NCBI RefSeq assembly: GCF_963676685.1
Contig: NC_092353.1
Span: forward strand, 22,072,001 to 22,136,000
Direction of reading: 5' to 3'
DNA length: 64,000 bases
From: Mytilus edulis
Lineage: Eukaryota
Part shown: positions 21,824 to 57,209 of the stretch, piece after piece
Layout of the letters: each line of letters starts with the position of its first letter
Position numbering within the stretch: position 1 is the stretch's first letter
Notes under the pieces: generated by a model
The model's database searches: none
The model's input: the letters and a program-made list of their open reading frames with translations, nothing else
What the model was told of the DNA's origin: nothing
Position numbers and translations under genes: made by a program

Positions 21824-23099
21824 ATGGAGCATAATGGTGCTGATAGAGTAAATATGGCTATTGCTACCCTACGCAATGATTTGGTAGGTTATATGTTTGA
21901 CGTTTGATATTTATGTGCTTCGTGGTATGTTTTATTATTTTTTTGTTCATTTATTGTTGATACTGTATAAAATTGAGCAGAATTGGAGAAAAAAAATTAA
22001 CGTGATGTTACTTTACTTATTGTTACTGAATTGTATTAAACGTATATCCTCACAAAACGTTACACAATTAGTACAAAACGCATCTAACGTTTGACAAAAT
22101 ACATTAAAATAATATAAATGATTTTGATATATAAAAGAAAAAACACGATTTTGATATCATTTTAGCTTGAGATGAGAAATCAAGATGTACAACTGATGAA
22201 ACAGCTATTACATATCAATGTAACGATACAGAAAATGACCAATGAACGACGTTATCAGTGGACTAAATCAAGTACCAATAATCATATACCAAAACGACAA
22301 CAAAGTGTGCCACCTTTTATGTGGCTTCACAAGGACTACATTGGATCTAGTTCAAGCTCTGAAGGTATGTTGTATGTAATGTTTTCATACACGATACTTG
22401 TAATATTAATTAATACATATAAATGTGCTTAATATTTCCAAATGAACAGTTGCATGTGTTCTAAACAATATTTGTTAATTTGCATACTCGATTTACCTAA
22501 ATTTATTGTTACCACAAATAACAAATAACAAGCAAAATTAATATTTGATATTTGATATTTTTAAGTATTAATGTAATGGAATAGATGATCCTTTATAATA
22601 AAATTTAAAAATGGAATTATTTTTCTGGAATATATATTCCACTTCAGAAACAACACTGTATTTTTGTATTGGGTTGTCTTTAAAAAAAAATACTTAAAAA
22701 AGCATCATATAAAGAATAAAGGACCAATATAAACATAATCCTACAACAATTACACTATGCTTAGAGATGCAGTATTGGAAACTTTCTTAAGTTGAGCAAA
22801 ATTATGTTAGTTTAAATGAACAAATTGTTGCAATTCTCATTCAAGCTAGCTAATATATCATGTGCACAGATTTTTTGGTAATGTAATGAATTTTTATTGC
22901 AGACACTTCAGAAGATATAAGTGATTATTCCGATACAGAAGATGAAACATTTTCCAAATCCAATGGTTTTCCGTTACGTAATAGCATAGTTTCTATTCTT
23001 CCTTTGAGTGACAATGAAGGCGATGAAAGTTCAGATGAAGAGATTCTTAAGACAAATATAAAATTATGGAAATTCTCCAGGTCTCATGATAATGATTGA
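21824..23099 (+). CDS. Cluster gene 2: FAM167/LURAP-like coiled-coil adaptor, 151 aa; exons 21824-21883, 22166-22364, 22903-23099
   Basis: MEHNGADRVNMAIATLRNDL|LEMRNQDVQLMKQLLHINVTIQKM...KRQQSVPP...SSSE|DTSED...DEEILKTNIKLWKFSRSHDND*. Canonical GT-AG introns (phase 0, then phase 1) and an open frame throughout. Confidence 0.85.
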
Positions 23100-23544
23100 A
23101 CACGTACCGTTATTAGTACAGACAACTGATCATAGACGTATCTGCTCAAGACAATTATGTACATCAAGGATATGTGTTTGAGAGATGCTACTCAAATGGT
23201 ATTTGTTACAAAGCGAAATAACAAATTCGAATGATACCAAAGTGGTCTACATGTACGTGCTGAGATATAGGACGGACTAAACGAAACGCTACCTCAATTC
23301 AACTTTCGATGAAAGCTCCAATAGCTGGATTTCTTGCAATAAAATCTAAAATAACTTCATAATGCTTTGGTTTTATTTTAGACTTCCTTTTCATCCAGGT
23401 TACTAAAACCTATATGATATCTACCTTATTTGTTCTAAACTTGTATCACTAGAAATAGCGACATTTACTAACGAATACATGTATACATTTTGTGCTGAAT
23501 TCCCTTCATTTGTTCCATGCAGTTTAGTGTTTCTTTGTATATAT

Positions 23545-24433
23545 TGTTTAAATTTTATCATCGGTATAAAGACATCATTCGTAAATATAGCTCAACATGC
23601 AGACTTCTAATACGTTCAGGTATTTCACATCCAATTTTTTATGGAAATATTCTTTATAAAGCACAAAGGTGTCAGTATTCACCTCAGAAACTTACAAAAC
23701 CTTTGAATAGACTTATTAAGAAGGGATATAATTACGATACTGTTGTCAAGTCATTAACGATTGCATATCTTGGCGTTAATATTGAGTCACTGATAAGGTC
23801 TTTGCATCGGAACTAAACACATTTATTCTAAAAACAGTTGTTGGCATGACACGGGTTATGTTCTTCTCATATATGTTATGATGGTATGATACTAAACCCC
23901 TAAGGGAAGGATTGTGCCTGATGTTCATATGATGAAATCATAATCTTTCAGTCAGTTTAATTGAAGTCTGGAGCTGGCATGTCAGTTAACTGCTAGTAGT
24001 CTGTTGTTATTTATGTATTATTGTCATTTTGTTTATTTTCTTTGGTTACATCTTCTGACATCAGACTCGGACTTCTCTTGAACTGAATTTTAATGTGCGT
24101 ATTGTTATGCGTTTACTTTTCTACATTGGTTAGAGGTATAGGGGGAGGGTTGAGATTTCACAAACATGTTTAACCCCGCCGCATTTTTGCGCCTGTCCCA
24201 AGTCAGGAGCCTCTAGCCTTTGTTAGTCTTGTATTATTTTAATTTTAGTTTCTTGTGTACAATTTGGAAATTAGTATGGCGTTCATTATCACTGGACTAG
24301 TATATATTTGTTTAGGGGCCAGCTGAGAGACGCCTCCGGATGCGGGAGTTTCTCGCTACATTGAAGACCTGTTGGGGACCCTCTTTTTTTATTTTTTATT
24401 TGGTCGGGTTGTTGTCTCTTTGACACATTCCTC
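23545..24433 (+). mobile_element. PLE family B, 5'-truncated (RT C-terminus and 3'UTR)
   Basis: KFYHRYKDII...GISHPIFYGNILYK...KKGYNY is a PLE-type RT C-terminus. The downstream ~600 bp recurs at 16285, 38425 and 48020. Confidence 0.8.
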
Positions 24434-27186
24434 ATTTCCATTCTCAATCTTATTTAGCATAGTTGGGGCATTTGTTTACAACATAATAGCACATTATATT
24501 CATATTTGTTTAGATCTTGTCACGTTTTAACCCTGAGCTTGTCTCGTCGACTGCAACAAAATACTGTTTTCTTCTTCAAGAACATGTATTCGACTTCTTG
24601 CTGTGTACTCCGGTGGTGTTTTTTTTTTCTCTTTGCTGACAAGGGTTTTCAGTTGATAAATGTTTTCGTACCATTATGGATTTAGAAATTTTATAGTAGT
24701 GAAAAAAATTAAGGATATGTGATATGATTGCAGTTGAGAAAGGTGTTTACCATAATTTTAATGAAAAAAGTAAAATGACAAAAGTACAACCTCCGCAAAA
24801 AGTTTAGAACGAACAGTCCTTGAACCAACGGCAAAATCAAAACCTCTCTAACACATTAAACGAATGGAAAAACTACTGTTATGTTCCTGACATAGATCAG
24901 GCGTTATCATATGTTAAATATGGTGGATGAAATCTGGTTTTATAGCTAACTAAACCATTATATTGAAAAAAATGTTTGAAAAGGATATAAGTAGTTGAAG
25001 GTTAATGTTCGGCCTCCATCAACGAGAAAATACAATCGGCTATAAAAGGCTCCGACATGAACAGATGTCGTGTAAAATTTCATTAAATAAACTTGCATGA
25101 AGGATGTGCCTTACATAATATAGTATAAAGAAATAGCAAGAAAAAGCGACTAACAAAACATGAATGTCAAAAAAGCATTAAAACATAGGGTATTTCGCGA
25201 CAAACAGCACAAGAAGTATATCATATAGTCAACTGTAAATGGTGCTGACAACAAGAAAAAAAATACAAAATACAAAATACAAAAATACAAAAACCAAACA
25301 AGTTTCAAACAATCATGAGAAGCGTAGCTTATCAATGACTTTCTTAAATGGAAAAAAAATCATTTATGAACTAGTATTTTTCCAGTAAGAATAAATGTTC
25401 CATTTCAAAATATGGTCATGATCTGGGTCAAGGTCAAATATTTGTATGCTACTAAACCAAAGCCAGATTTATAATTAGAAAAACGAAAATAGCAAATAGA
25501 CCACGTTTTTCAATATTACAAATATAAGTTTAAAGAGTTCTTATTAATTATAGTATTGTGAAAGGGAAGTGTATGGATCATGAACACATTAAATAGCTGG
25601 TTGTTCTATATGATAGGAATGCACACTAGGAGAGAAAATGATATAATAGTATATTATACACATGAAGACATATGGCAAATATTAGGGCCAATGTGTTCTT
25701 TGTGTTGTGTACTAGATACAATTATAGTATTTAACATCCTAGACCAGTAAGTCAGCAAGATGTATGAAATGTATTCTTATTTACAAATAATAACTAGAGT
25801 CTCATAACATGAAATCTAAATCATGCTAAATCAACTTTATACAAGTTAGTTCGCAGAGTTCATTATGCATGTGATGATCATTTCTTTTAATAATGATGTA
25901 CCAAGGTTTGGTCCTGAAAGTTATCTCTCGGTCTGTGAACTTCCGAGTTGTCATGTAAAACTGCGACTGCCAAAATTGCATCCAATGACATGTCCCCCCC
26001 TCAATATCATTCAAGGGTCTTATTTTACCTTCCATTTAAACAAAATGTAGAGATACACATCTTTTCGTGAAGTGGTTTTATTGAGTTTTGATATCAGATC
26101 GTAATTAAACATTGCAAATTTTTTAAATGACAGTATACATATAAGATATGAATGATTTCCAATGACACAACTCTCCAACAGAGACAAAAAACATTTGAAT
26201 TTCAACACAGCGAGAATATCGGACACCAGAGGCTTCTTTTGTTGATTTGTTTTCCATACGTTTGAAATGTTTCAGATTTTTATTTTTGTTGTTTTACATT
26301 GTTTTGTTTACTCTTGGTATCTTGTCTCCAGTCGTTAACTATTTCCTCTTGGTATATGTGTTCCCTTTGGTACACTACTTTTATCTTAATGTATCAGTGT
26401 ATCAAATTGAAACTAACTTCATATGTAATTTTTTTTATAAACAATAGCATGTGTGCTTAAGGTAAAATACTTGCCTGCACACAGTGTATAAAAGTCAAAA
26501 TATGATATAAATGCTTTTATTTAAAAGTTGTATAAGAGTCATACGGTCATATACATTTCAACTTGCTATTTAACTGCATATAATAAATAAAGACGCATTT
26601 GAAAAAATTAAGCAAGGAATCACTTCAGTTTGTAAAATTATAAAAAAAATCCCGATCATATTGTTTTATACATACGGATACATCATGAGCATTTATTCTT
26701 ATCAGGATGTAGAAAACTACATCGTAAACTATAATAATATACCTGCAACAAACGAAATATTAATGGGAATTTACATTGTTGTACGTGATGTCTCTATCCT
26801 TTCTACCTTCCCACAAATTAAATAAACAAATGTCATGTTACCCCTGCAGTATAAAAATATATCATAAAATCTGCATTTCGTGAGTATATATTTTATACAA
26901 ATTATTATTAAGGCGCTGTAGGGTAAAATATAAAATAATCAAGTAAAACATCACATTAAAATAAGGTGTGAAGCGATTAATTACATATCCGTAAACAGAT
27001 ATGTAATTATTAAACAAAAATGTACTAAATGTATATGTTTACTTTCAGAATCACACACTTTAACCTCTCGCCGATGGTAAGTGCTATTAGCCAAGGGGGT
27101 ATAATGACAATCGGGTTCCTGTTGGCCAACGAAATCGATAGTCTCAGAGGTGGCGAGTGAAATTTAATCATCCAAACAACTGAATA

Positions 27187-27224
27187 TACCCCATAGTGGT
27201 CTATTGTTCCTGAAAGTATAAAAG
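27187..27224 (+). promoter_or_regulatory. Putative core promoter of gene 3
   Basis: TACCCCATAG..CTATTGTT..TATAAAAG, with the TATA 88 bp upstream of the ATG. Confidence 0.6.
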
Positions 27225-27304
27225 GGGCAAATTTCTTCTAACTTGTTATTATTATATTTTACGTCTACATATACACGTCAAGAAAAAAACATTACAGAAG
27301 AACA

Positions 27305-27873
27305 ATGGCAAACGCTACAGAGAGAGTAAATACAGCTCTTGCTGCCTTGAGAACTGAGTTGAGTGACATGCGAAACCAAGATGTACAATTGATGAAACAA
27401 CTAATGAACATCAACAACAGCATTCAACAGCTGACAAAGAAACAAAAATCTACTAAAAGAAGTAAAGGATCAAAAAGTCAGAAAACAAACTTCAGAGAAA
27501 TGATCCGAACATCAACACTCAGCAAAATTGATGAAGGTAATTATCGTTCAATATCTATACTTCAATAAAATAAAAAAAAATTAAAAAAAAGATAAGAATT
27601 AAAAACATTTTATCAATCAACTTTTTAATTTACTAATATATGATAATGTAAACATTCATTTTATACTTTATATTGAAAAATAATTATGAAAAAAATATTA
27701 AAATTATATTTAAAAGAACTGTGACTTAATAGTTGTCTCTATTTCTATTTTCAGATACTACAACAAGCTCATCTGAAAGTGACTATGAAAGCGATACAAG
27801 TTCAGATGAAGAAATCTTCAGAACAAACGTTAAATTGTGGAAATATTCACAGTCATCGGAAGACAGTGATTAG
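27305..27873 (+). CDS. Cluster gene 3: FAM167/LURAP-like coiled-coil adaptor, 116 aa; exons 27305-27536 and 27755-27873
   Basis: MANATERVNTALAALRTELSDMRNQDVQLMKQLMNINNSIQQL...TLSKIDE|DTTT...DEEIFRTNVKLWKYSQSSEDSD*. Donor GAAG|GTAATT, acceptor TTTTCAG|AT. TATAAA at 27217. Confidence 0.9.
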
Positions 27874-30857
27874 ACATTTAACAAACATTATATACACTGC
27901 CAAACTAACAAGATACATAAATTAGTATCGCAAGAAGACGAGTTTTCTGATGATATTCAGACCTACTGCCTATCGCTCAAGACATTGTGCAATAAACATT
28001 AAATGGTGCTGTTACAAAAGAGAGAAATCGTATTTATAGGACATAGTGCATATTTGAAATCAAAGAACTCAAATCAGACTACTGGATAAAAACAAGAAAA
28101 TGCTTGAAATAACATTCAATATCGAAATGATGAATAGACACTATTTTCTATTCGTTACGTTATCTCTAATTGTAATTATTTTACCGACACATAGTCAAAT
28201 CGACTACTTGATTGTTAACTTTATACAATTGTTATGATGATTTTAATATATTAAAATTATTTGAAATATCAATATATTTATTTTTTTACTTTCACAATGT
28301 GCAACTAACCTTTTGCAATGATTGTTTCCCCCACCTAAAATGACATAACCACTGGTTTTGTGTTTGTTATTTGGTTTATATTTCAATATTTACTTACTGT
28401 CTAGCTGCCAAATGTTTTATTGGAGTATTCACGCCGGGGAGAAAAGAAAAAGAAAAAAAATTGACAAGGCACTTTCAGTGTTTTGGAGGTCTACTGTACA
28501 GTATGTGCAGATCATCAAAAAAGGAATATCTTATGTATACTAAATGAGACATGGGGCAACCTATCAAAACCAACTGAGATCGTTTAGATTGATGATCTAA
28601 GCTTGAGTCCACAATGCTAAAAAAAAAGTATTTTATAGTTTGCCAGTTCGTTCAAAATCGTTAATTTAATGTCCTTTCAGCTATCTTAAAATCTTATTTT
28701 ATTTTCCAACTTTCATAAATGCAAATTTACATTTGTTCAACATGGTTTTTGTACTCGTTCTAGGGATTGCATTCATAAAATATTCTTGTCATGAGGTGGT
28801 TCTGTGAAATGGTTAATATTTCTAGAGTTGTGCATAAACATGCTCCCAAAATAACAATACGGAAGATACAAATTTGTGCAACTTCACAAAACTGAATAAA
28901 TGTACTAAAAAAAAATACACTATCAAATATTTCAAAATAAAATACAAACAGAAAAAAATCAGTAAACAGAAATAAATAATGTAGATGAAACACCTTTAAA
29001 TGATATCAATTTATCGTATTTACTTAAAACAAAGAAAAATATCAAAACAAAGCAGATTGTAAACATTGAAACATAATACTCCACAAGAGACAAAATTAGA
29101 GTTCTGTCATTAAAGACCTAATGGAACGGAACAATGGAGGACTGTTCGACACAAGTAAAGAATTCGTAGCAGGGGAGAAAGTGGTTATTCAATATTGAAT
29201 AAACTCTGGCGTAATACTGAAATAGGAAAAGGAAACTTTATATTGGTTTCACGTGAAACGCATGTTAATTTTTTTTTTCAAGTTTTTTGTTAATTATTAT
29301 TGTATGTGTTGAAAAAAAAAGAGATCAGACATACATTTTTTTTTTTCTATAATTCATGAATTCTTCTTACATATAGAACACTACTATTGAAGACGGTCAT
29401 ACGTACAAATGTATGTTATTTCCAAACGCTTTATAGCTATAGTAAGTGGACGACCATTTGATATATTTTGGGGAAGAGATGACCAGGTGGAATTTTTTGC
29501 GGATTGACTATTCATTTTTACGTTTGTATTCAACTTATTCCTTCATTTTGTGTCGCATAATTTAAATTTTCAGTCTGTCAGGAGCAAGGTTTTATATTTT
29601 CAGCTCTAAGCAGATCAGGAGTTTCATTTACAAAATCATCATGCTGCAACAGCTCCCCTCTTGGAAATCAAATGATCGTCCACTAATGTCCAAAACTTCG
29701 TGGATATATGTTCTGTAAATGCAATACATGTTTTGTTAAGTTGACCATTTGGTCATATAAAACGCAACGGAAACGTCAATATAAGAAAACAAGATTTGGT
29801 ATCACTTCAAATGAGACAACTCTCCACTAGAGACCAAAATGACAAAAAAATAACAACTATAGGTCACCGTACGGCCTTCAACAATGAGCAAAGCCCATAC
29901 CGGATATTCAGCTAAAAGGCCCTGAAATGACAAATGTAAAACAATTCAAACAAGAAAACTAACGGCCAAATTTATTTACAAAAAATGAACGAAAAACAAA
30001 CATGACTTGTCACACATCAACAATCGACCACCGCTCAATGACAAGCCCTGACTTGGGAAAGGTATATACATACACAATATGGCGGGATTAAACATGTTAG
30101 CGGTCAGTTCGTCGAATACTTATTTTGTAGAGTATTCTGCTAGGGAAAATACATGCTTTAAAAATAATAAGGTGATATAAAACGAGTAAACGACTAAAGT
30201 CATCGCCCTGAACATACATGAACTATTTGCCACTGGACGTTTATCAACCAACTATCAATCAATGTTGGCAATTAAAATTCTAATTATAGTCCTATAAATC
30301 AGAATCGGAATCGTGCTTGTTAATAGGATTCTAATGGTATGTTTACCTAGAACACATAACTCTCGTTCACTCTTTTAAAATATAAGTGTTATTATATCTA
30401 CCATTATTGGTAAATTGGGTCTTATGATGTGTTCGTATATGGCAAATGTAACGTTTGTAAATTGCATGGTTTTCAAATGCACAGAACGAGTCATTTTGGT
30501 CAGATTTGAAATCATAAGGGGAGAAAGAATAAATGGAGGTGCCAACATAAGGCATACACATCCTATGGAGCTTTAATCCGCACGTTAGTAGATATAGGAA
30601 GTATGATTGTTGGATTGTAACTTGATTAACAATTAGTAACAAATGTGTCTTGAATAATAATGACGAACAATAAATAATTATAAATCTACGTGTGTTCTGT
30701 AAAGTTGGTATAACAGGACTCCAATTAAAAACATCCACAGTTGTCGAAATTGCGTTTTACTTTAATTTGCACTGTCTTCCTCTAAATATATTAAACGATG
30801 AAAATGAATAAGTATCGTTTGACATATGGAAGAGGTTTGATGTAATACACACAAGGC

Positions 30858-31075
30858 GTTTATATATGAAAAATATATAGTTTATCCTGATGTTGTTGTT
30901 AAAGGAATAAATACAGATACAGTAACCATATTTACTTTCTGTCCTATCCATAAATGATATCATTAGACGTGTATATATGAAAAATAAATAGTTTATCCCA
31001 ATGTCGTTTTTAATGAATAAATACACGTACAGTAATCATATATTTTCTGTTCTATCAATAAATGATATCATTGAC
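30858..31075. repeat. Two-copy ~110-bp tandem duplication upstream of gene 4
   Basis: TATATATGAAAAAT..TAGTTTATCC...AAATGATATCATT occurs twice. Confidence 0.85.
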
Positions 31076-31228
31076 CGGTCATACAGTGTACAGACCTACT
31101 AATTTCCTCACGGGTGTTACATTATTTCATCGATGTGGCATTTAAACAATAATCTCTCTATTGGCCTTAGAAATTAATAGTAATAGTGGTGGTCTGACAA
31201 ATAGGTGAAATTCGATCAACCAGTGATA

Positions 31229-31266
31229 TACCCCTAGCTGTAGTATTGTGTCTGTGGGTATATAAG
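31229..31266 (+). promoter_or_regulatory. Putative core promoter of gene 4
   Basis: TACCCCTAG..GTATTGTG..TATATAAG, with the same 30-bp motif-to-TATA spacing as gene 3. Confidence 0.6.
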
Positions 31267-31349
31267 GCACAGGTGAATTGATCATTTAATCATATCTACA
31301 TTTGAAAGCTAACTAACAACATTAAAAGGGAAAATATATATTAAGTAAA

Positions 31350-31965
31350 ATGGCAACAGATAGAGTAAGCAGTGCATTGGCTGTCTTGAGAACAGAACTG
31401 AATGAGGTGAGAAGTCAGGATGTCCAGTTAATGAAACAGTTACTTAACCTCAACAGCAGTATTCAACAACTGACTAAGAAACAAAAAAAGAGCAAATCTT
31501 CAAGCAGAAATCGAAAGGCTACATTAAAGGAACTCATGAGATCATCAACGATGTCAAAAATAAATGAAGGTAATTAAAACTTTGATCAACTTTTGGTTTA
31601 AAAATATTTTCTATATTTTTAAATAACTTTTTTTAAGGTAAAGTGTTGTTGAACTTTTTGTAAAATAGAATTAAGTTATAATTTGTTTTATCGTTGTCTA
31701 TTGTCAATGTCCTTCAGTAACATAAGCGTGGACAACAATTAGAAAAAAGTATACTGATCGTAGAAAGTAAAAGTAAAAATTGTAAACATTATTTTGAAAA
31801 AAAAAATTCAATATGGTTGAACTGAATTTTAATTGTTTCATTCTTTTCTTTCCAGATTCAGTAACGTCTGAGAGTGACGACGATAGCTGTTCAAGTTCAG
31901 ATGAAGACGTGTTCAAAACAAACGTGAAATTATGGAAGTATGCCAAATCAGTGGACAGTAAATAG
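31350..31965 (+). CDS. Cluster gene 4: FAM167/LURAP-like coiled-coil adaptor, 109 aa; exons 31350-31569 and 31856-31965
   Basis: MATDRVSSALAVLRTELNEVRSQDVQLMKQLLNLNSSIQQL...TMSKINE|DSVT...DEDVFKTNVKLWKYAKSVDSK*. Phase-1 GT-AG intron at the same position as in gene 3. TATATAA at 31259. Confidence 0.9.
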
Positions 31966-33755: not shown

Positions 33756-33816
33756 GTCACGTGGTAAGATAGAATAATCAGCTAATAGCTAACTATTGTT
33801 CTGCAAGTATATAAAC
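33756..33816 (+). promoter_or_regulatory. Putative core promoter of gene 5 (E-box, CTATTGTT, TATA)
   Basis: GTCACGTGG at 33756, followed by CTATTGTTCTGCAAGTATATAAA, which resembles CTATTGTTCCTGAAAGTATAAAA of gene 3. Confidence 0.55.
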
Positions 33817-33904
33817 GGGAATCCGCTTAGTTCAGAAGAAAATCCGCTACTGATCACGAAAGACTATTTAAACTAAGACAAAGTTAGTATACTAACGACT
33901 TAAA

Positions 33905-34655
33905 ATGGCCAACGACAATGCTACAGAGAGAGTTACCAGTGCTCTGGCTGTGCTGAGAAACGAGCTGAGTGAAATGAGAAACCAGGACGTACAGCTGATG
34001 AAACAGCTGTTAAATATCAACAACAGTATACAACAACTCAGCAAGAAAAATAAAAGTACTAAACGGGTACGAGTAAGCCACAGGGGGCGCCGTCCATTAC
34101 TAACAGATGCTTTCAAGACGGCGGAGCTGACCAAAATTGACGAAGGTATCTACGCTTACATATTATAACACTCTATTGTACAAATGTACATGTACATGTA
34201 TATGTTTACTATTTAATATAACAATTATTTGTGCATTCTGTTAAAATAAATATTCGTCTTTTCAAAATCAGTTTTTATTTCAGGAAGAGGTGGAATTGAT
34301 GTTTCATTCAACTTCTCTCATCCGTGTTTAGTTGTTCATATTTTGATAGTAATAAGATTAAAAAAAAAAAGGGGGGATTCTTATTTCAACATTAATTATG
34401 ATAACACTGATAGTACCGATGTATTCACTGTATCATAGCAACATAAAAATATATGGAAGAGTTCAAATCAAAAATAGCCAAAACATCTTTTATTACACGA
34501 ATTTATTGTAAAAGTATGTATGTACTATTTCAGATGTATCTAGCAGTTCATCCGACAGCGAAGGCGATAATGATGAATGTGCAGACAAAGGACTCTTCCG
34601 GACAAATGTAAAATTGTGGAAGTATTCCCAAAGTAGTGACAGCGATAGTGATTAA
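33905..34655 (+). CDS. Cluster gene 5: FAM167/LURAP-like coiled-coil adaptor, 120 aa; exons 33905-34145 and 34534-34655
   Basis: MANDNATERVTSALAVLRNELSEMRNQDVQLMKQLLNINNSIQQL...ELTKIDE|DVSS...KGLFRTNVKLWKYSQSSDSDSD*. Phase-1 GT-AG intron. TATATAAA at 33808. Confidence 0.9.
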
Positions 34656-36795
34656 GTTTGACTTGGACGACAAAAAGCTTTATTGAAAGCTTAGCACACT
34701 TCGACAAAATACCATGTTGGTATAGCTCAATAAATTACACTCAGGACGCCGTTACTACCGATATATATATAAATGAATAGAAGACACGGCATACTTAATG
34801 TGTGCACTACATTCATCAGTGTCGCGACTTGTGGGAGAGGAACTGTTTTCAAGTGACATAGTGTTTGATATAAAATTGACAGAACTTGACACGTTTCCGT
34901 GTTGTAAGATGCTAACTTATTCTAACACAGAACTTGACACGTGTCCGTGTTGTAAAATGCTAATTTATCCTGATATACGACGCTGTCCATTGCAAAATGT
35001 GGAATGTTCAGTGTATGTGCGTTACAAGTATTTCTAATGAATTATTTATTGTTATTAATCTATAACATCGACGACGAAGAACGCTTTCTCCCTTGTATAA
35101 CATTTCCTCTAGAGTCGTTTATTCTCAATTGTTGGTCAGCATTTAATTTTTACTTGTTATTTTACAATTGTTATAAAAAATTAAACCAAAAACTCCAATT
35201 ACTGTTTTGTTCTATTACGTCTTGTGACTGTGGTATTAATTATAATTTGTTTTACTTAAATGCAAATTTTCCAAATATTCTATTTGCACATTTAAGGACA
35301 GAGTTTCTTATCCAAAAGTTAGTAGTTTTAAGTTCAAATTACACTCTTCGAGAAGCCAGATGAGACCATTAAACAGAATGGTCGTTTCATTTAATGTAAA
35401 TTAAAATGGTTACAGTTGTGTTTTCCGGTAGTCTTAAAATTTCAGGTTGTTTAGATCAACAAAATCTTTAACTTGACGCGGGACAAACGAAAGGACGTAC
35501 ATACGAACGCACGCACATACCGAAAAACATAATGCCCCACTTAGGGCATGAAAATTATTAACTAAACAGCAGACTTATTTGAATTTTTTAACGAAAAACT
35601 TAAATCTGAACAAAACACAAAAGCACATACAAAATTATTTATATCGTTGCATGGAAAAGAAATTGCATTGTGCTGTTGAGATTTTGTTTGCATTTTATTG
35701 TCATTATTAAGTCTTGCATAAAAATCCAAAGAAAAACCAAATTACACGTGGCACCCTGTATAATTTCTTCTTCTCCATGAACGAACTTAATAAGTATGAG
35801 GAATTCCTGGTTCTGTTTGGGTTTTTTATACAGTAAATTCTTTGCATGTTCAAAGACATAATGTTTATCAGGTTTTACTATCTTCTACTGTTAAGTTTTA
35901 CCGTCAAACACGCATTATTAAACTTTCTTCTAAACCAAAATGCATACAATTGATGTATTTTCTTCTATTAAGATATTATTGTACCGTGACAAAAAAAAAC
36001 TACAAAATAAACTTTTGTTCATTTAACATGTGCGTTAAAAGTTTTAAATTTATAAAAATCTTGTTTCCTGATCCACCATTTGCCTCTATTCAATTTCCGT
36101 ATGTTAAAGTTACAATACATATGCAATGAAGCTAGGTAACAAACAAGTTTTTAATAACCAATACATGTGTCAACGAATTTTAGCCTAATCCATGACTTTT
36201 AGTACTCAAACAGGTGTTTAATGAACAACTACATGTGAGACATAAATTGTTAGGTAACCGTCAATATACAAGACAGCATTGACAATAACTTTTCTCGTAA
36301 GTTTAATAAAGTACTGATATCTGACAATAAGTCACTAGTAAAACGACCATTTCAACGTAGGAGAATGTTTAAAAACACTTACTGTTTGATCCCAAACACA
36401 GCGTGAGGATACTTCAATTAATGGTGTTAGAATGATAAAGTAACAAATAACGTTGTCTAAATTAATTTCTAAAATAATATTCTTTGCAGGAGAGGTGTAA
36501 TACAGGACTAAGTTCTTTAGTGTATTGTAAGGATATTTTCTCATAAGACTGCTGTAGAACAATTCGCTGATCAATATATAACATTGCCACTTCATAATCG
36601 AAATGAAAACGAGATACAATAAAAGATCGATATGAAGGGAACTCTTTTACAGTTAAGAAAAAAAAACACATATTTTTCTACCCCATTGTGCTGTTAAAAT
36701 ACGTTAAAATGAAACGGTATCGTGGATTTGACACTACACCGGCACAAAAAAAGGACACCCTGTTTCAAATTTGCAAATCATAGATTTATAAAAAT

Positions 36796-37070
36796 ACAAG
36801 AATGTGTTCATAGTACACGGATGCCTCACTCGCACTATCATTTTATATGTTCAGTGGACCGTGCAATTTGGGTAAAAACTCTAAGTTGGCATTACAATTT
36901 GAAGGATCATATCTTAGGGAACATGTGAACTAAGTTTCAAGTTGTTTGACTCCAACTCCATTAAAAGCTATACCTTGACCAAAACCTTTAACTTGAAGCT
37001 GGACAAACGAAAGGACGTACGGACGGACGTACGCACAGACCAAAAAACATAATGCCCCACTTATGGCATG
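36796..37070 (+). mobile_element. Non-autonomous Helentron/HINE-like element; partial copy at ~35445-35550
   Basis: GGAC-type microsatellite followed by a short 3' palindrome (ATGCCCCACTTATGGCAT) and an A-rich end. The 3' part is duplicated at 35460-35587. Confidence 0.55.
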
Positions 37071-38424
37071 GAAAACTATTAACTAAACAGCAGACTTATT
37101 TGAATTTTAAACTATTTGCAACCTTTTCTACCTATTTGAATAAATTGTGTAGATTCAATAATTTCAGTTTATTTGAAGAAACAAAGTAGTCCGAAATTTC
37201 TCTGCGTATTAGGCTTGCTGGGGACTAAGCAATTAGTGAAAACAAATGCGTACAGACGTCATAGCAATCACTACAATAATCGTCCCTCGACCTCGGCAAG
37301 TCCTCAAAAAGGACGTCAGTCGTCAGAGCAATCTCAGAGAAGAACAAAATTAACTTTCAAAATTAATTAATTGTTTGTAGTATGTTAAAGTCAAAGGGCA
37401 ATATATTATGCATTGGCAGAACGAGAAGGTATTAACAATCAATCCAGTAGATATGACACGTTGTGCACAGTACTTCGACCGGGATAAAGATAGAAATGAA
37501 GACTGTAGCTGAAAAACGCGACACGAGGGTATGTTGGACAAGAGCATTGCAGCACGCCATCTACGTTTAGTTACCACAGTTATAGTAAGTGTAGCCTAGA
37601 TGTAATATCACATTACCAATTCATGATACATCACACCCGGTTGTATATGTCACACCCAGTTCCAAATGAAAAAGGGTAAAACAAATATTTCCTTGAATTT
37701 GACAGTTGTAGGAAATTATTCCTACATTTCACTACAGTAAACATTTTTTGAGTCATAAACAAATATCGTGGGTTTTATCAAATTCTATCTTTAAGTAAAA
37801 GTTTCTTTTAGAATTTCATAAGTATAAAGATAAGTCAATGTAGTCTTCTAATTAAAGTGGTCACAGATACTATCAAATGCATGAGATTTTTAGGCAATAC
37901 AATTTCGAATAAAAAACTGGTACCTTATTTGTTAAATTCACCTTGTTTTATAGTATTATTATAATCATGTCTTATTTTGAATCTATATTTTTAAATGATT
38001 AAACTTCAAAAGTAATGTACAAAATTTTTATTTCGAGGGCAGATTGTAATGTAGCCGAGAAATATAAGAAGATTATAATTATTCCATACAATACATGTAA
38101 TTATAAGACTCAATTTTATCAGATATAACTGCTAACGATAAGCTTCAAGATAGTTTGTTGTGTTTCCATGGTCGCAATATCTTAAATGTGTTTGATTTTC
38201 CAAAAACTTTTAATATTGCAGAGTCACTAATTACTTAAAAAAAATGAAGTTAACGTGGTTCTTCTTTTTTCACTTCCAAAGTCTCCAACCTAAACTTATA
38301 CTTGATTGGTATACTACTTTCACGAACAGTGTACCACTCCTAAGCACTCGAGCTGACTTTGAAGTTATTTTGAGTAGCGTGTTTTTAAACATAAGAAAGA
38401 TCGGGTATAAATGCCAATGATAAA

Positions 38425-39040
38425 ATTGGGAAAGGAAATGGGGAATGTGTCAAAGCGACAACAACCCGACCACAGAGCAGACAACAGCCGAAGGCCACCA
38501 ATGGGTCTTCAATGTGGCGAGAAACTCCCGCACCCGGAGGCGGTCTTCAGCTGGCCCATTAAAAAATATGTATACTAGTACAGTGATAATGGACGTCATA
38601 CTAAACTCCGAATTATAAACAAGAAACTAAAATTAAAAATCATACAAGACTAACAAAGGCCAGAGGCTCCTGACTTGGGACAGGCGCAAATTGCGGCGGG
38701 GTTAAACATGTTTATGAGATCTCAACCCTCCGCCTATACCTCTAGCCAATGTCGAAAAGTAAACGCATAACATTACGCACATTAAAATTCAGTTCAAGCA
38801 GAGAAGTCCGAGTCCGATGTCAGATCTAGAAGATGTAACAAAAGAAAATAAATAAAATGAAAATAATACATAAATAACAACAGACTACTAGCAGTTAACT
38901 GACATGACAGCTTCAGACCTCAATTCAACTGATTGAAAGCTTATGTCTTCAACATATGAATATCAGGCACAATCCCTCCCGTTAGAGGTTTAGTATCATA
39001 CTATCATAAAATATATAAGAAGAACATAACCCGTGTCATG
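38425..39040 (-). mobile_element. PLE family B 3'UTR copy
   Basis: Reverse complement of 23845-24430. Confidence 0.8.
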
Positions 39041-40699
39041 TGAGACACCATTCTTTCAGAGAGAAAATAACGTAAAGAAAAAAAAGAAGCAAATATAAGC
39101 CCCGGACAACCGTCAACACCCATACCACATTGCAAGATAAAACAAACACCCCAACATGACAACTAACAAAAATCCAAATGGGGAATACAAACGGCCTGAT
39201 TTCTGTACAAAACAAAAAACGAAAAGCGCATATGACACACAGCAACAAACGACAACCCCTGAATGACAACCCCTTTATACGAAATTGAAAATTTATTTCA
39301 TTTACAATGCAGTACTAGTACAGGGGAAAACATTCAATTTAATATCACAGAGTACATCTAATTAAATTTTGTACATTTTTCCTATTAAGAAAGTTTACAT
39401 TCTTCCCATAATACGCATACACCCTTGAAAACCCGCGCGTTTTGGTAATAATACAAAAATATTTGACTTAGATTTAAAAATTTGAATTCACACGGAAAAA
39501 AAATATTTTATAGAATATATCCTTGTAAAAAGTTTGTTATAAATGAGCATATACATTATTTAATGCGTGTTAGAGATTTATCTTTCTGATCTGACCATTT
39601 AAAGATTGACACAAGGTGTTGAGCTTATCTTTATTTGGTAAATAAGACTGATCCATGACCTTATATCATATTTCAAAACAAACTAATCTGTCAACAAATA
39701 TGTCTTTGTGGTCTGATAAGTATATCTTTGTAACAGATCAGTCAATGTACCAATGGACAATACACTAACAGTACATTATGTAAAGGGACCCGTTATCCAA
39801 TACACACATGGGTGAGAATAGAGTTTCTTTACTGGCTTTTTATCAAAAATGTTAAAGATAAAAAATATTTGGATGGTCTTGGGAAGATTTGTTTCGCCTA
39901 GATACCCACTAAAGTACAAATAGGATCTACAACACATTAGACTTTGTATTCATTACAGAAATAGAAATGTTTTAACACAAGAGATACACCAGACATTAAA
40001 GTGTGTGTTCACAAGAGAAACAAATTTTTTACCATCGAACAATATTTATAGGTAATCATTCAATATAAAATTTAGAGATGAGGTGTGATTATCCAACAGA
40101 GGTAAACAGTAAAAGAAAATGGATTTAAGCAACTTAAGGTCAACCTTCGATAAAGAGCAAAAAATCATACCGTTTATTCAGCTATAACAAGCCCTACATG
40201 AAACTACAGGCTGTTAAAACCGTTTTCGCTAATCTGGGTCTATATACATATTCAACAATGGACTCTCACCAACTGTGACATTGTAGACAGGAATAGAATT
40301 CATGACAAAATCTCCTTTTTGTTGATCTAGTATTGCCGATCATTTTGTCTGTTTATTTTCTCTTTTTATTCTATAGTTTTTGCTCAAAACACGAAAGAGG
40401 GCAAACAAATCCTCATTTAAGGGCATTTCACTCCTATACAGAGTGACAGTATAGTTTCATTTGGTCCAGTAATTTCAGAGGAGAAGAGTTTTTTAAAAGT
40501 TAACAGACGACGGACTGAAGGTGATGAGAAAAGCTCACATGGCCATGTGGACCAGGTGAGCTTAAAACATGAAACCATTTAAACTAGTTTGTAACTTAAC
40601 AAGAAACGGAAAGACAAATCAAATGCAACTATTATCATAACGTCTAAACTATTCTCTTACAAATGATAACACATTGGAATTAAAATTATGGTAACTGTA

Positions 40700-42407
40700 A
40701 GAAAAATCTTTAAAGACCCAAATGTTGCAAAACACCTATCCTACCTCCATGACAAATATGTTGTTGTCCCCGCAGATAAAGCCCCAAACAACACCGTTTT
40801 TGTGTGTAAAACTCATTACATTAACTGCTTGATAAACGAATTAGGTATTGACAATTCACTTGGAAACTCAACATATACCCTCATGACACTTACCAAAGAG
40901 GAAATCCTGGATAATCATAGGTTTGTTCTGCGTTCCTTTGGAATTTCAACCAAAGATGAAGAACTGGATCTGCCATCACTGTATTGGATACCTAAACTAC
41001 ATATTAAGTGTCCTTACAAACAACGGTATATTGCTGGGTCTTCCAAGTGCTCCACGAAACCTCTTTCTAAATTATTAACATCTATTTTATCAGCAATCAG
41101 ACACGGGCTTCAAAGTTATTGTGAAACTGCCTATTCTAGAGGGGGCGTGAATCAGATGTGGATACTTAAAAATTCCAAAGATCTTTAATGGAACATACAA
41201 TCCAACTCTCTTTCATCTTGTAACAGTATCAAAACATTTGACTTTTCTACTCTTTACACTAGTATTCCACATTCCAAACTAAAAGACAAATTGAAAGAGT
41301 TGTTGTTGCTTTGCTTCGTTAAAAAAGAATGGCCAACGTAGATACAAGTATCTTGTCTTAGGGAGGGATAGATCCTACTTTGTAAAGGATCACTCTGATT
41401 CGAACAAAAAATCCTCCGAAACTGATATTATCAAGATGATTGATTTCTTGATTGACAACATATTTGTTACGTTTGGAGGACGTGTTTTTCAACAGACTGT
41501 CGGCATTCCAATGGGAACAAACTGTACCCCTCTACTTGCTTACTTGTTTCTTTATTATTATGAGGCTTACTTCGTGCAGGAACTTCTTATGAAGAAAGAT
41601 AAGAAGTTAGCAATATCCTTTAACTCTACTTTTCGCTATATAGATGATGTTCTTTCACTAAATAGTTCAAAATTTGGTGACTATGTGGAACGCATCTATC
41701 CAATCGAGCTAGAGATAAAGGATACTACAGATACAGTTAAGTCGGCCTCATATCTTGACTTACATCTAGAAATTGACAATGAGGGTCGGTTGAAAACAAA
41801 AGTTTACGACAAAAGAGATGATTTCAGCTTTCCTATTGTGATCTTTCCATTTCTAAGTAGCAACATTTCAGCAGCACCTGCATACGGGGTATATATCTCC
41901 CAATTGATACGATATTCCCGTGCTTGCATTTCCTATCATGATTTTCTTGATAGAGGGTTGCTGCTCACAAGGAAGCTATTAAACCAAGAGTTCCAAATGG
42001 TGAAGTTGAAATCATCCCTTCGTAAATTTTACGGACGCCATCACGAGTTGGTTGACCGTTATGGAATAACCGTTTCAAAAATGATATCGGATATGTTCCT
42101 TACGTTGTAACTACAATCCCCTTCCCTTTCATGAATGTGACCTACCGAACTAGACTATTTACCGGATTTGTTATCACATAAGCAACACGACGGGTGCCAC
42201 ATGTGGAGTAAGATCTGCTTACCCTTCCGGAGCCCCTGAGATCACTCCTAGTTTTTGGTGGGGTTCGTGTTGTTAATTCTTTAGTTTTCTATGTTGTGTC
42301 GTGTGTGCTGTTGTTTGTTTGTCTTTTTCATTTTTAGCCATGGCGTTGTCAGTTTGTTTTAGATTTATGAGTTTGACTGTCCCTTTGATATCTTTCGTCC
42401 CTCTTTT
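40700..42407 (+). mobile_element. PLE family A, longer disabled copy (reverse transcriptase pseudogene and 3'UTR)
   Basis: PADK, YWIPKLH, TFDFSTLYT, GIPMGTNC and FRYIDD motifs. In-frame TAA at 41186 and a frameshift in the A-run near 41321. The ORF ends after the thumb with no C-terminal GIY-YIG domain. Confidence 0.93.
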
Positions 42408-43034
42408 AGAAAACACATGAACAATGCTATAACCAGGCATGCTTTCTCAATTTTGTTCGATTTCCCATTCAAATGCATTATATGTCTGATAGAACCTGGA
42501 AACATTGGAGTGCAAGTTGTTTCTTTACTTTGAATATATCTAATTAGTTCCATACCTATCACTTTGATTATGTTATCGCTCAATTTTATGAAAAAATACA
42601 CTTTAATGCAAAATATTTAAACATTTAGATGAATCAGTTATTAGTTTTGCCATGTCCAAATCTAAAATTCATTGTACTAAATTTGAACTTTGATTTCATC
42701 ATCACCAACTAACTGAACTGTATCGTAAGAATCGCGATTTCACTTGTTGAATTGTTCTGGAGACCTAAGTTGATCATCCATTATTTTAATTTGTGTAACG
42801 TAACTCATTGTTTAGTTTTCTGAGTAGTGTTTCGTTGATTTTGTTGATGGATTGCGTTTTTTATGAGTTTTAAGATATCGTTTTACTTTTTACCCTCAAT
42901 CTTTCCGACAATGAAAATGTGTGTACTAAAATAGTCAAACTAATAATAAACGATTCAATCTCCAATAGTCTCCAATCTGCCAACATGATCGTTTGTTACG
43001 TTAAGGATAAGTTGCTGCTCAATAAAATCATTTC

Positions 43035-43320
43035 GTTTTAGTTCACCTGATCAATAGGTCCAAATGAGCTTACCTCATCACTTGCCGTTATTCGTCGTCC
43101 GTCGTGCGTCGTTAACTTTTTATAAAAATCTTCTCCTCTGAAATTACTGGGCCGAAACGAACCAAACAATCAACATTGGGGTATTTAGTTAAAAATGTGT
43201 CTGACGTACCCGCCTTTCAACAAAGATGACCAACATGACTAAAACTTGAACATAGGGGTACATAAAATTGTAAATGGCAGTATTTGGATTATATCTCTGA
43301 AACTAAAGCAAATCTGACAA
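43035..43320 (-). mobile_element. HINE-like element; related copy in opposite orientation at ~40420-40566
   Basis: T-run, then palindrome GTTCACCTG..GAGCT, CGTC microsatellite and TCTTCTCCTCTGAAATTACTGG. The reverse complement is at 40466-40566. Confidence 0.5.
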
Positions 43321-44168
43321 AAAGTTAAATTTATTCTTTTGTGTTTGGAGCAGTAAAAAATCTAAATAAGATAGAGAGAAACTAAACAAACTTCAATTAT
43401 CAGCAGTACAAGATAAACAAAATATAGTATCGTCTACAATGTTGAAGAATGTCCTTTAATGAATATGCATTTAGACAAGGTGAGCGACATAGGCTATTTA
43501 GAGCCTCTATTTTTTTTCTTTGTTTATTATGAAAATAAATATGGAAATATGTTAAATATGTTAAGAAATTAATACCGAACATTGTCAATATTAATATTAT
43601 CAAGAACTCTGGTTTTAAAATTAAATCAAGAAATTCAATACCCCGCGTAAAATATGAAATTAAGAAGTTCAGTCCTTTCATAAGTTTGCTTATTAAAAGT
43701 CATTAAAAGTAATAATATGCGCCAATTAGTGTTCTGATTGTCAAACCACCGACCACCTGGGCAAATTAATTTTAAATAACCACTTCAAATTGTAAATTCT
43801 TCAGATTTTGAACAAAATACTAAAACCTTGAATCATTTATTAATAATTTTACTAGGTCAAGTAAGACAATATAATTCGAAAATCATAATACTTGTACGCA
43901 GCTATAATTTGTGTCAATATTTTACTCCTTTTATATCTCAAAGCAATTTGGGTGATTAAATTAAACGCCTAATCAAAATATTAGTCGTTCGTATTTTACA
44001 TTTTTGAAATAAAATGTTAATTTCCATGTAGTATTTAAAAATATGTAGTTATAGGTGAGAAATATTTTAAGGGTGCCTCACCAAGAACAAGAAATCTGGA
44101 CAGTAAACAATGTTCATACCGCAGACATTAAAAGTGTAAAATATATACTAGCTAGAGAATATATAACT

Positions 44169-46468
44169 ATGGATGAGTTGATGATTGCATCGGTTAGACT
44201 TGATACGACAATAGAAACTATCAAGTCGGATCTGGTAGGTTTAACATACTAATATTATGCTAATGTTTAAAAATGTAAATATATTTCTTTTATGGAGATA
44301 CCTCCTATGATAGTTTACTGCTGTTTCTTTCTTTATATCTCTTCTTTTTTGCCATGGCATTATCAGTTTATAAGTTTTCGACTTAGCGATTTGGTATCTT
44401 AAAAGTCGGTCCTTTTTATAACTCTCTATCTTTAATTATAACGAATTGCAGGTATTGTGAAAGCCATAAGAACAGAGAAAATGGATTGTAAACAATAATA
44501 GGACAATGTCGTAGACGGATAATAAGTGAAATTTTACAAGATTACTTTAAAAGGTTCTTATTTGATCATGTTGATAGCACCATGCATTTATATTAAAACA
44601 AAAATCAATACAAGCATTGTATCCTTCGAATTACTGAATTAAACCAAAAGGAGGGTCATATTCTTGTGTAACAATAAATGAAATCATATTTTAAAGTTTT
44701 AATTTTAATATTCTTTTGTTAAATCGACCAATGAGGTTCATCACTTTACACCATTGAAGCAAAGCATGTATATGTTAATAATTACACCTTTTTATTCAGG
44801 TTCAGTTACGGAATCAAGACATCAAACTTATGAAACAATTGATTCAAATAAGCGACACAATACAACAGATTTCTAAACGTCAGATACAACAGAGGCCTTT
44901 GTTTAATGCAAAAGGCTACCTCAGTCAGGTGTTGATGTTCATTAACCCAGCCTCTCTGTCGGTAAAAATAGAGACGCCATTAATCAGACAACAAAGTGTT
45001 CCTACTTACTGTAGAATGAACAAGTTGGATTCGTCATCACTATCAAGTATTGAAGGTATATTTATTTAAATCATACTTAATTTACTTTTTTTTCTAGATA
45101 ATGTTTTGTTTTTATAACACGCGTTTGTCTTTATAATATTTACTACGAATATTTGGTAATACAACAATCCAAAAACACAACACAGCGTTTCTACACATGA
45201 AGAATTAAATGTAGAAACAGTGATACGGTCTCCAACAATGTAGTAGAAGTCATAGTGCAACAACGGTCTTCATTTTTGTCTATTTTGTCGAAATGTTAAG
45301 TTTAGTTTATCTTTCACGATGGATGTTTTATTTGGAGCAGGATCTATTAACTTTGTGGAGCACCTGACATCAGTTTTTAGTGTTATTCGTGTTGCTCAGT
45401 CTTTAGTGTTCTATATGATGTTTTGTGATTTGATGTATCTCTTTGAGTTGTTTTTCATTGTTCGTCATTGTAAGTTAGTTTTCGTCTTATGAGTTTGGTT
45501 ATCTCTTTGGTACATGAATCACTCGCGTCTCTAATTATAAAAAAGAAGATGTGGTATGGTTGCCAATGAGACAACTGTCCACAAGAGGCCAAAATGACAC
45601 AGAAATTAACAACTATATGGGTCACCGTATGACCTTCAACAATGAGCAAAGCCCATACCGCATAGTCAGCTGTAAAAGGCCCCGAAATGACAATGTAAAA
45701 CAATTCAAACGAGAAAACTAACTGCCTTATTCATATAAAAAAATAACGAAAAACAATTATATAACACATAAACAAACGACAACCATTGAATTACAGGCTC
45801 CTGACTTGGGACAGACAAATACATACATAATGTGGCGGGCTTAAACATGTTAGCGGGATCCCAACCCTCCCCTAACCTGGGACAGTGGTATAACAGTACA
45901 TCATAAGAACGAACTATAAAAATCAGTTGAAAAAGGCTTAACTCATCAGATGGACAAAAGTACAAGTGGACGTGGCCGGGTAATTGAGACACACAAGGCA
46001 GCTGCTAGATACAATCTGAAGCTTTACGTTTGTTCACGAAGTCAAATTATATAGTTTACTAATGAGGTATATAAATTTCTACCTAGATAGAAGCATAAAG
46101 GTTCTATACATAAATGGAAAGAAACTACTTTGAAATATGGACTGACATCTATATACCTAACTGATTGTGGTTTTTTTTCAGATTCCGGCTCGTTGTCAAC
46201 ATGCGATGATTCAATTAGAAGCAGTAATAGCGAATATAAGTATGAAGATAACACTATAATACAAAGACAGTTGTCAGTTCCAGAGTCACAGAGACCAAAG
46301 TCTATCTCAACTATACCATCTCCCTATCTAGATCACATTACTGATTGTGATCAGCATGTTGAGGAAATACTAATGAGAAACGTTAGAATGTGGAAAAGAA
46401 CACAGCAAAATGACGATGACTCAGTTTTTCTCGAAGATTATAATCTACCAACTTTATATGAAAAATGA
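44169..46468 (+). CDS. Cluster gene 6: FAM167/LURAP-like coiled-coil adaptor, 202 aa; exons 44169-44234, 44800-45055, 46182-46468
   Basis: MDELMIASVRLDTTIETIKSDL|VQLRNQDIKLMKQLIQISDTIQQI...LIRQQSVP...LSSIE|DSGS...QRQLSVP...EEILMRNVRMWK...LPTLYEK*. Both introns match gene 2 in position and phase. Confidence 0.85.
45538..45980. repeat. Family C interspersed repeat in intron 2 of gene 6; further copies at ~6393-6695, 11358-11488, 14410-14565, 29785-30105, 32815-33010
   Basis: Recurrent AAGAAGATGTGGTATGATTGCCAATGAGACAAC...CACCGTACGGCCTTCAACAATGAGCAAAGCCCATACCG. Shares CCTGACTTGGGACAG with families B and D. Confidence 0.8.
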
Positions 46469-56419: not shown

Positions 56420-56708
56420 ATGAAGTATCTTGAAAGTATTCATCTATTTGTTCTCAACATGTATATGTCGGAGAGTTTATTGCACTTCGCAAACTTTGAA
56501 ACTGTTGGCGACTGTGCATTGACGTCAATAAATTTGCTATCTATAAAGGAGATATCTTTGATACAGTGTCTCGACGAATGCCTTAAGAAAGATTTTTGTA
56601 GAGTTGTCGCATATAACAAAAATACTACCGAATGTATTATGGATAGTTCAGGATTGAACAGTTATACAGTTACAGCAACTAAAAGCTCTGCTACATGTTA
56701 TACAATTG
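56420..56708 (+). CDS. First coding exon of a secreted/surface PAN/Apple-domain protein (downstream exons not identified)
   Basis: Hydrophobic N-terminus, then C...SLIQCLDECLKKDFCRVVAYNKNTTEC...C (PAN-type Cx3C..C..C). Phase-1 donor G|GTAAGT at 56709. Paralog at 62172. Confidence 0.7.
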
Positions 56709-56794
56709 GTAAGTATACATAAATAATAATAATTGCGAGTGCAATATATGTTCTACGAGGGACAATATTCCCCAATATTCATGCAATACCCCTT

Positions 56795-57033: not shown

Positions 57034-57064
<31 letters not shown>

Positions 57065-57123: not shown

Positions 57124-57209
<86 letters not shown>

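Follow-up and report, generated by a model that had tools for sequence, protein, structure and literature searches.

The LURAP-type cluster and its shared motif

A 64,000-nucleotide stretch of the Mytilus edulis genome (contig NC_092353.1; hereafter the window) was found to contain six tandem LURAP-type genes, all on the + strand, five of which encode a short motif in the last exon. An earlier sequence-only reading of the window had proposed this motif as a candidate new linear motif, and it is the subject of the present analysis. The six gene models are in-frame, have GT-AG introns, and contain zero internal stops.

18876..19520, + strand, gene 1: 2 exons (18876-18944, 19158-19520), 143 residues; LURAP-type helix, without the motif; identical to P0067
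21824..23099, + strand, gene 2: 3 exons (21824-21883, 22166-22364, 22903-23099), 151 residues; identical to P0012
27305..27873, + strand, gene 3: 2 exons (27305-27536, 27755-27873), 116 residues; entire LURAP helix in exon 1
31350..31965, + strand, gene 4: 2 exons (31350-31569, 31856-31965), 109 residues; identical to P0011
33905..34655, + strand, gene 5: 2 exons (33905-34145, 34534-34655), 120 residues; P0010 with 1 difference
44169..46468, + strand, gene 6: 3 exons (44169-44234, 44800-45055, 46182-46468), 202 residues; long layout with R-Q-Q-S-V-P and DSVF

Compared to named Mytilus proteins, the models of genes 1 to 6 showed 0, 0, 4, 0, 1, and 2 differences, respectively, the record compared with gene 3 being P0002 of M. 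trossulus and that compared with gene 6 being P0054. The three identical protein records probably derive from the same assembly, and hence lend the models no independent support. Transcript data covered gene 3 alone. Its intron (27537-27754, with GT..AG ends) was skipped in one raw RNA read from run X21 and in one contig each from X1 and X7, and therefore the motif exon of gene 3 is joined to the LURAP helix on evidence that is independent of the records. Three of the four RNA runs showed this junction, and the fourth, X22, gave zero reads.

Exon 1 of genes 3, 4, and 5 scored 31.8, 26.8, and 31.5 bits against the LURAP profile PF14854, which has a curated cut-off of 25. An intron splits the LURAP helix of genes 1, 2, and 6, and exon 2 of these genes alone scores below that cut-off; PF14854 was found at E<=0.1 in all 39 whole aligned relatives, including the matches of genes 2 and 6. 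The FAM167 profile PF11652 reached 13.8 bits on exon 1 of gene 3, below its cut-off of 25. The six proteins end, in the order of the genes, in -FDHV, -HDND, -EDSD, -VDSK, -DSDSD, and -LYEK, and none of the six window proteins has a class I PDZ-binding end ([ST]-x-hydrophobic). By their profile matches the genes are assigned to the LURAP family, and by their tails they are classed as orthologs of neither LURAP1 nor FAM167.

A six-frame scan located the five peptides quoted in the sequence-only reading on the + strand, each 13 codons long, with the Asn codon at 23055, 27826, 31921, 34605, and 46379. The gene models place each copy in the last exon of genes 2 to 6, as had been claimed, and gene 1 has no copy.

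23034..23072, + strand, gene 2 motif DEEILKTNIKLWK, 42.2 bits
27805..27843, + strand, gene 3 motif DEEIFRTNVKLWK, 46.5 bits
31900..31938, + strand, gene 4 motif DEDVFKTNVKLWK, 38.0 bits
34584..34622, + strand, gene 5 motif DKGLFRTNVKLWK, 38.8 bits
46358..46396, + strand, gene 6 motif VEEILMRNVRMWK, 37.5 bits

With the motif matrix, the five sites scored 37.5-46.5 bits and the best other site in the window 9.9 bits. The pattern N[VI][KR][LM]WK had 0 occurrences in 60 simulated 64-kb sequences having the trinucleotide make-up of the window. Among the five copies, 35 of the 68 pairwise identical motif residues (Trp and Met excluded) are encoded by different codons; therefore, it is the protein and not the DNA that is conserved, and the copies are not recent DNA duplicates. 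Chance occurrence and recent duplication of the motif were rejected on the simulations, the codon differences, and the gap in matrix scores (37.5 versus 9.9 bits).

Consensus and range of the motif

A search using rows derived from the window recovered 115 proteins, and a 39-row profile recovered 202 representatives at E<=0.001, the best 150 of 202 being examined. The consensus was Y-x-x-[ILM]-L-x-[RKT]-[NS]-[IV]-[KR]-[LI]-W-[KR]. Over 85 distinct strings, which were collected with a pattern that itself required the Trp, the N/S, and the hydrophobic positions, the successive residues were Y58/D18, E54, E27/G20/D16, I60, L75/F10, x, R36/T27/K16, N80/S5, I50/V30, K54/R19, L72, W85, and K79/R4. 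The Asn that had been called invariant is so within the five window copies, but gives way to Ser in five of the strings beyond them. Ahead of the EE pair, 35 of 50 aligned relatives have Tyr, whereas each of the five window copies has Asp or Val. The start of the motif at EE, as first written, was loose, and that consensus describes, with a bias toward mussels, an older motif that begins with Tyr.

The Tyr bears on the possibility that the motif is a Tyr-based signal, such as a YEEI-type SH2 ligand, a YxxPhi sorting signal, or an LC3-interacting region (LIR), or else a degradation signal, rather than a docking helix. Patterns of these kinds matched many of the 50 rows: Y-x-x-Phi 36, an acidic-led LIR-like core 32, and Y[EDG][EDG][IML] 17. 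The patterns are short, however, and were counted without a shuffled control, and the Tyr is lost in the five window copies and in the three short rows of the oyster/pearl-oyster type that were checked. Because these Tyr-less copies keep N-[IV]-[KR]-[LM]-W-K, the Tyr cannot be the core function, and we consider a signal of this sort very unlikely. Also tried and rejected were the RVxF, IQ, MDM2-type, LxxLL, and nuclear export signal patterns, which matched 0, 0, 0, 1, and 8 of the 50 rows, the PP1-docking RVxF having been written as [RK]-x(0,1)-[VIL]-x-[FW].

Among LURAP-type proteins with a species name, the motif was present in 50 of 61 (27-51 bits) and missing in 11 (<0 bits), in a set that is biased in that the search profiles contained the motif. 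The 11 comprise gene 1, six short scallop proteins, one Lottia protein of the type found on contig C1 (see below), two hemichordates, and one crinoid. More strictly, the motif was sought in 21 other proteins with a matrix that drew on 22 mussel, oyster, and scallop (pteriomorph) strings and on no others, and was found in 14 of the 21 with p values of 1e-12 to 2e-3 per protein, Capitella being the weakest. These carriers were the bivalves Solemya, Sinanodonta, and Dreissena, the gastropods Lottia, Physella, Lymnaea, Bradybaena, and Littorina, the chiton Liolophura, the cephalopod Argonauta, the annelids Owenia and Capitella, the nemertean Tubulanus, and one protein without a species name. With this matrix no motif was found in the other seven of the 21 (p 0.09-0.88), namely the two hemichordates, the crinoid, the C1-type Lottia protein, one LURAP1L-like protein, and two FAM167-like proteins. 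The sequence-only reading, which knew of no such motif in vertebrate FAM167 or LURAP proteins, was thus borne out for the relatives of both kinds that were tested. No ecdysozoan members were identified among the matches. A search of the mussel's own genome with one motif exon recovered four of the eight known copies, and so cannot show absence from other proteins.

In 50 aligned rows, which were selected for presence of the motif, the mean fraction of the top residue was highest in the motif (0.68), followed by the LURAP helix (0.57), the linker (0.28), and the tail (0.21). The distance from LURAP helix to motif ranged from 61 to 248 residues (47 rows), a variable spacing as expected for a free-standing linear motif. 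A tree of the LURAP helix showed 8 changes of the motif label versus a shuffled mean of 29, and separated 26 motif-less rows of the FAM167, LURAP1L, and DSG types at only 91/75 support; the tree had 92 rows and 53 columns, and its bootstrap was unsettled. A single origin of the motif with repeated loss is plausible on this sequence comparison. The LURAP helices of the hemichordate proteins P0235 and P0239 group with annelid and nemertean motif carriers (99/89, on long branches), yet both proteins are motif-less; their placement hints that the gene group could be older than Lophotrochozoa.

The motif is far older than the window cluster, and has been kept across molluscs, annelids, and a nemertean. 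Profile search showed conservation in orthologs far above background, and neither Pfam nor the PDB supplied an annotated domain that matches it. In Pfam, 0 families were found at E<=1 for the five motif exons and for each of 20 motif rows; in the PDB, there were 0 profile matches at E<=10, and another PDB search gave one designed-repeat match (E 0.97) that lies on the acidic flank. Atlas gave no usable feature match for the motif. We found no account of the motif, or of the LURAP family in molluscs or Lophotrochozoa, in a literature search that missed most subscription journals and supplements. We conclude that the motif is real and previously undescribed.

A putative docking helix on a probable kinase adaptor

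To our knowledge, LURAP, FAM89, and FAM167 proteins have so far been studied in vertebrates. LURAP1 binds the kinase MRCK via its leucine repeats and MYO18A or Dishevelled via a PDZ motif in its tail (PMC5677176), and LRAP25 promotes phosphorylation of LIMK1 by MRCK (PMC9954052). DIORA1 (FAM167A) contacts MRCK three times, with residues 104-157 on the kinase inhibitory motif (KIM), helix 157-183 on the CNH domain, and residues 184-214 on the C1-PH region, and its residues R124, E126, and D134 bind the KIM (PMC12519202).

The window proteins share features with each of these. Like LURAP1 (LRAP35a) and LURAP1L (PF14854), they have an N-terminal LURAP helix followed by a disordered Ser/acidic region, but five of them carry an internal helix motif that is missing from the LURAP1L-like protein P0233. 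They resemble FAM89B (LRAP25) and FAM89A, by description only, in being of the small LURAP-domain adaptor type, FAM89B linking MRCK to LIMK1 (PMC9954052); a FAM89B-named cluster was among the Atlas feature neighbours at 0.80, which is a lead only. With FAM167A and FAM167B (PF11652) they share a homologous KIM-binding helix with equivalent R/E/D positions (profile match 96.6%), and FAM167 proteins also have further binding elements C-terminal of that helix. The second helix of FAM167 and its G-V-T-x-M-N-x-x-x-R-R-F-S tail are, however, unrelated to the motif, and homology of the motif to the FAM167 tail was rejected on a comparison of 20 motif-bearing last-exon rows with 6 FAM167 rows (profile-profile probability 0.1%).

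For a scallop member and for P0054, the match of gene 6, AlphaFold2 (AF2) modelled a long N-terminal helix (predicted local distance difference test, pLDDT, >90), then a linker of low confidence, and a single helix over the motif, set apart from the first. The latter spans residues 156-175 in the scallop protein (block pLDDT 89) and 164-184 in P0054 (block pLDDT 85), whose first helix covers residues 2-52. The motif is accordingly predicted by these models to fold as one short helix, in which Tyr, Ile, Leu, Asn, Leu, and Trp would lie together on one face with two Lys/Arg opposite. The helical hydrophobic moment was 0.514 versus 0.312 +/- 0.113 in shuffled columns. A WD40-like beta-strand was rejected, the 170-degree moment of 0.194 lying under the shuffled mean of 0.319 and AF2 giving a helix.

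Such a helix might instead form a two-heptad coiled coil that self-associates or folds back onto the LURAP helix of the same protein, and would thereby hide the kinase-binding face until released. Read as heptads, the residues place Tyr and Asn/Ser at position a, Ile with Leu at d, and Leu with Trp at e, and leucine zippers are known to derive specificity from an Asn buried at position a. Two heptads make a short zipper if it is to be stable, however, and the invariance of the Trp suggests that it fits a pocket of a folded partner. The predicted template modelling score (pTM) was 0.32-0.33 in both AF2 models, with no sign of confident helix-helix packing as judged by pTM and not by contacts. 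A coiled coil is in our estimation distinctly unlikely.

We propose that the motif is a subfamily-specific docking helix for a second protein, on a probable MRCK adaptor whose LURAP helix likely sits on MRCK, and put the chance that this proposal is correct at about even. By analogy with the vertebrate relatives, the N-terminal LURAP helix would bind MRCK via the KIM. The motif helix would fold on binding and dock a second protein, replacing the tails of those relatives, and would so deliver a substrate or effector to the kinase, in the way that MYO18A or Dishevelled is brought in by LURAP1 and LIMK1 by LRAP25. Motif-less paralogs (gene 1 and the six short scallop proteins) would then be competitors for the kinase that recruit no second partner. 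We see the motif as a replacement for the tails because the relatives bind the KIM with the LURAP helix and use their tails for the second contact, because positions spaced like the KIM-binding residues of DIORA1 are kept, and because the modules of MRCK are present in the mussel. At the positions spaced like R124/E126/D134 of DIORA1, genes 3-5 have R-E-D, gene 2 has R-D-D, and genes 1 and 6 have K-D-D, and over 43 rows the hot-spot equivalents are K/R in 40 and E/D in 41. A Mytilus MRCK was found that has a near-invariant stretch in the KIM region together with C1, PH, and CNH modules. A KELK family search gave no match anywhere and was uninformative either way. As a separate observation, the M. 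edulis MRCK record P0250 is missing 17 CNH residues compared to seven other lophotrochozoan MRCKs, a gap that is probably an annotation slip.

Several points weigh against a docking helix of this kind. The hot-spot mapping was derived from spacing and two FAM167-like rows, and not from an alignment with human DIORA1. AF2 is prone to drawing helices for short conserved stretches, and the pTM of the two models is just 0.32-0.33. The hydrophobic moment is reached by 18 of 300 column shuffles; of the short amphipathic helix first claimed, the separate helix is upheld by the models, whereas its amphipathicity is no more than suggestive. The motif is dispensable in some paralogs, as the 11 named proteins without it attest. 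The regions of DIORA1 beyond the KIM helix bind MRCK itself and not a second protein (PMC12519202), and by that analogy bridging is not the sole pattern in the family. Second-protein docking and bridging by the motif helix are therefore put forward as a predicted, candidate function.

The precedent of three MRCK sites on DIORA1 (PMC12519202) also leads to the possibility that the motif helix anchors the protein a second time to MRCK, at C1-PH or CNH, with one kinase clamped at two sites and no bridging. All of the needed modules occur in the mussel MRCK, and the flexible linker could span them. The profile comparison above argues otherwise, the motif matching the C-terminal region of FAM167 at 0.1% probability whereas the LURAP helices align at 96.6%. 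Furthermore, the second helix of FAM167 is acidic and the motif helix basic, and the genome has its own FAM167 genes for such a role (five matches above the cut-off). We consider a second anchor on MRCK unlikely.

The core of the consensus also resembles a part of the PP1 catalytic subunit. NIKLWK constitutes PP1 residues 145-150 (PMC3444507, PMC12152876), and PP1 needs both of its lysines there to bind SDS22, K147A/K150A being the SDS22-binding mutant (PMC11199634); the available parts of PMC13737739 and PMC10776994 held nothing further on these residues. The motif might then mimic PP1 helix 145-150 and bind SDS22 (PPP1R7) or another reader of that surface, tying a kinase adaptor to a phosphatase assembly. 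The consensus core is identical to PP1 145-150 and also occurs in two of the three mussel PP1 exons found, the equivalents of K147 and K150 are K/R in 73 and 83 of the 85 strings, and Y-[DE]-E and R-R stand ahead of the core in both motif and PP1, offset by one residue. The motif thus has the same six-residue core with both lysines as PP1 144-152, which is part of the SDS22-binding surface, but the PP1 copy sits inside a folded enzyme and the upstream register is off by one. One exon in the genome we take to be SDS22-like.

The likeness was noticed post hoc, however, after a search with four hexamers, and a perfect core has a p value of 8.6e-9 per position, or about 0.17 expected per proteome of 2e7 residues, which is within chance. 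The 16 columns of PP1 score 13.9 ungapped (E 13) or 22.1 with a free gap (E 0.2-2.7) versus 27-51 for true members, and the pairwise profile match between motif and PP1 spans 10 columns only. The Ile-Leu pair of conserved hydrophobic residues before the core is missing in PP1, and PP1 chains were absent from the PDB profile search at E<=10. An intron interrupts the stretch in two of the three mussel PP1 loci, whereas the motif lies within one exon; derivation of the motif from a captured PP1 exon is not supported, as the intron position differs. Mimicry of PP1 is in our judgement highly unlikely. On that outside chance, the adaptors would carry a free-standing copy of the PP1 SDS22-binding helix, with MRCK at one end and SDS22 or another reader of the PP1 face sequestered at the other. 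Were this true, a host-encoded mimic of the PP1 surface would couple kinase activation with the supply of PP1 holoenzymes in a lophotrochozoan-wide, bivalve-expanded gene group. The resemblance is a low-odds lead, although a cheaply testable one.

The cytoskeletal kinase MRCK is guided by LURAP, FAM89, and FAM167 proteins, whose tails determine to what it is directed. As a putative docking helix, the motif marks a further adaptor group in molluscs, annelids, and nemerteans, with a tail element conserved on par with the kinase-binding helix. It makes these genes a variant of the LURAP kind of adaptor and not a new kind of system. The 13-mer, with a W-to-A control, would be a reagent toward the lophotrochozoan branch of MRCK signalling, a payoff that is still a lead.

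Paralogs, linker elements, and other features of the window

LURAP- and FAM167-type loci fall into three genomic groups: contig C10 carries the window cluster, C1 has four loci of the LURAP type, and C12 has five FAM167 matches. Three further paralogs lie upstream of the window on C10.

L027:3788-4727, about 6 kb before the window
L029:3492-4324, about 87 kb before the window
L031:7938-6470, about 152 kb before the window

All three have the motif (39-40 bits), with the core NIRVWK in two and NIKVWK in one, and together with the six genes of the window they form a tandem cluster of at least nine genes. No motif site above 12 bits was found in the 10 kb around each of the C1 loci (L033-L036). 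These loci are second exons of the LURAP type; three reach a stop with a DSG-x-x-acidic element, which we take to be degron-like, and two of the three have PDZ-like ends. All five of the genome's FAM167 (PF11652) matches are on C12, apart from the window contig. Short motif-less paralogs occur in mussels (window 18876-19520) and in scallops (P0061, P0064, P0068, P0070, P0076, and P0082), and are candidate helix-only competitors.

The proteins comprise, in order, about 45 residues of LURAP helix, a linker that varies and includes an R-x-x-S-x-P site, then the motif, and a short tail. The Ser/Asp/Glu-rich surroundings of the motif, which had been described as unconserved, mostly are so, the exceptions being two elements that recur in the relatives.

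22295..22312, + strand, gene 2 R-Q-Q-S-V-P in the linker, an instance of the family-wide L-x-R-Q-x-S-x-P
44986..45003, + strand, gene 6 R-Q-Q-S-V-P in the linker, an instance of the same family-wide element
46412..46429, + strand, gene 6 D-D-D-S-V-F, a second small conserved motif, in the tail

L-x-R-Q-x-S-x-P is the best-conserved window of the linker, being present in 30 of 50 relatives versus 0.14 in shuffled sequences, and R-Q-Q-S-V-P in genes 2 and 6 is likely a phospho-Ser site. D.DSVF follows the motif in 7 of the 50 relatives, and DSVF occurs in 10 versus 0.15 when shuffled.

Exon 1 of genes 3-5 ends in L/M-x-x-I-x-E (window 27518-27535, 31551-31568, and 34127-34144), which presumably resembles a PP2A-B56 docking motif. 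A B56-like pattern within 35 residues ahead of the motif was present in 10 of 50 relatives versus 2.7 when shuffled, the maximum of one shuffle being 11. In P0171 (Capitella), P0185 (Owenia), and P0156, the motif is followed by an extra conserved C-terminal tail, G-x-V-D-x-[RK]-K-M-x-x-L-x-L-F-L. A TATA-like box lies at -88 to -97 from the ATG of genes 1, 3, 4, and 5, which is weak evidence in sequence of 32% GC.

The remaining features of the window are repeats, retroelement fragments, and PAN/apple-domain exons.

4408-5874 and 40670-42110: repeated remnants of one family, one of them between genes 5 and 6; no Pfam match at E<=0.01; presumably reverse-transcriptase-like
51692-53567: 46-bp minisatellite, 40.5 copies
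56399-56722 and 62166-62417, + strand: two exons with PAN/apple domains above the Pfam cut-off
57012-57315: (TAA)n array
59048-61769, - strand: retroelement fragments with integrase PF00589 and RVT_3 above the cut-off and weak Dam-like and reverse transcriptase matches, which we take to be a tyrosine-recombinase, DIRS-like retroelement

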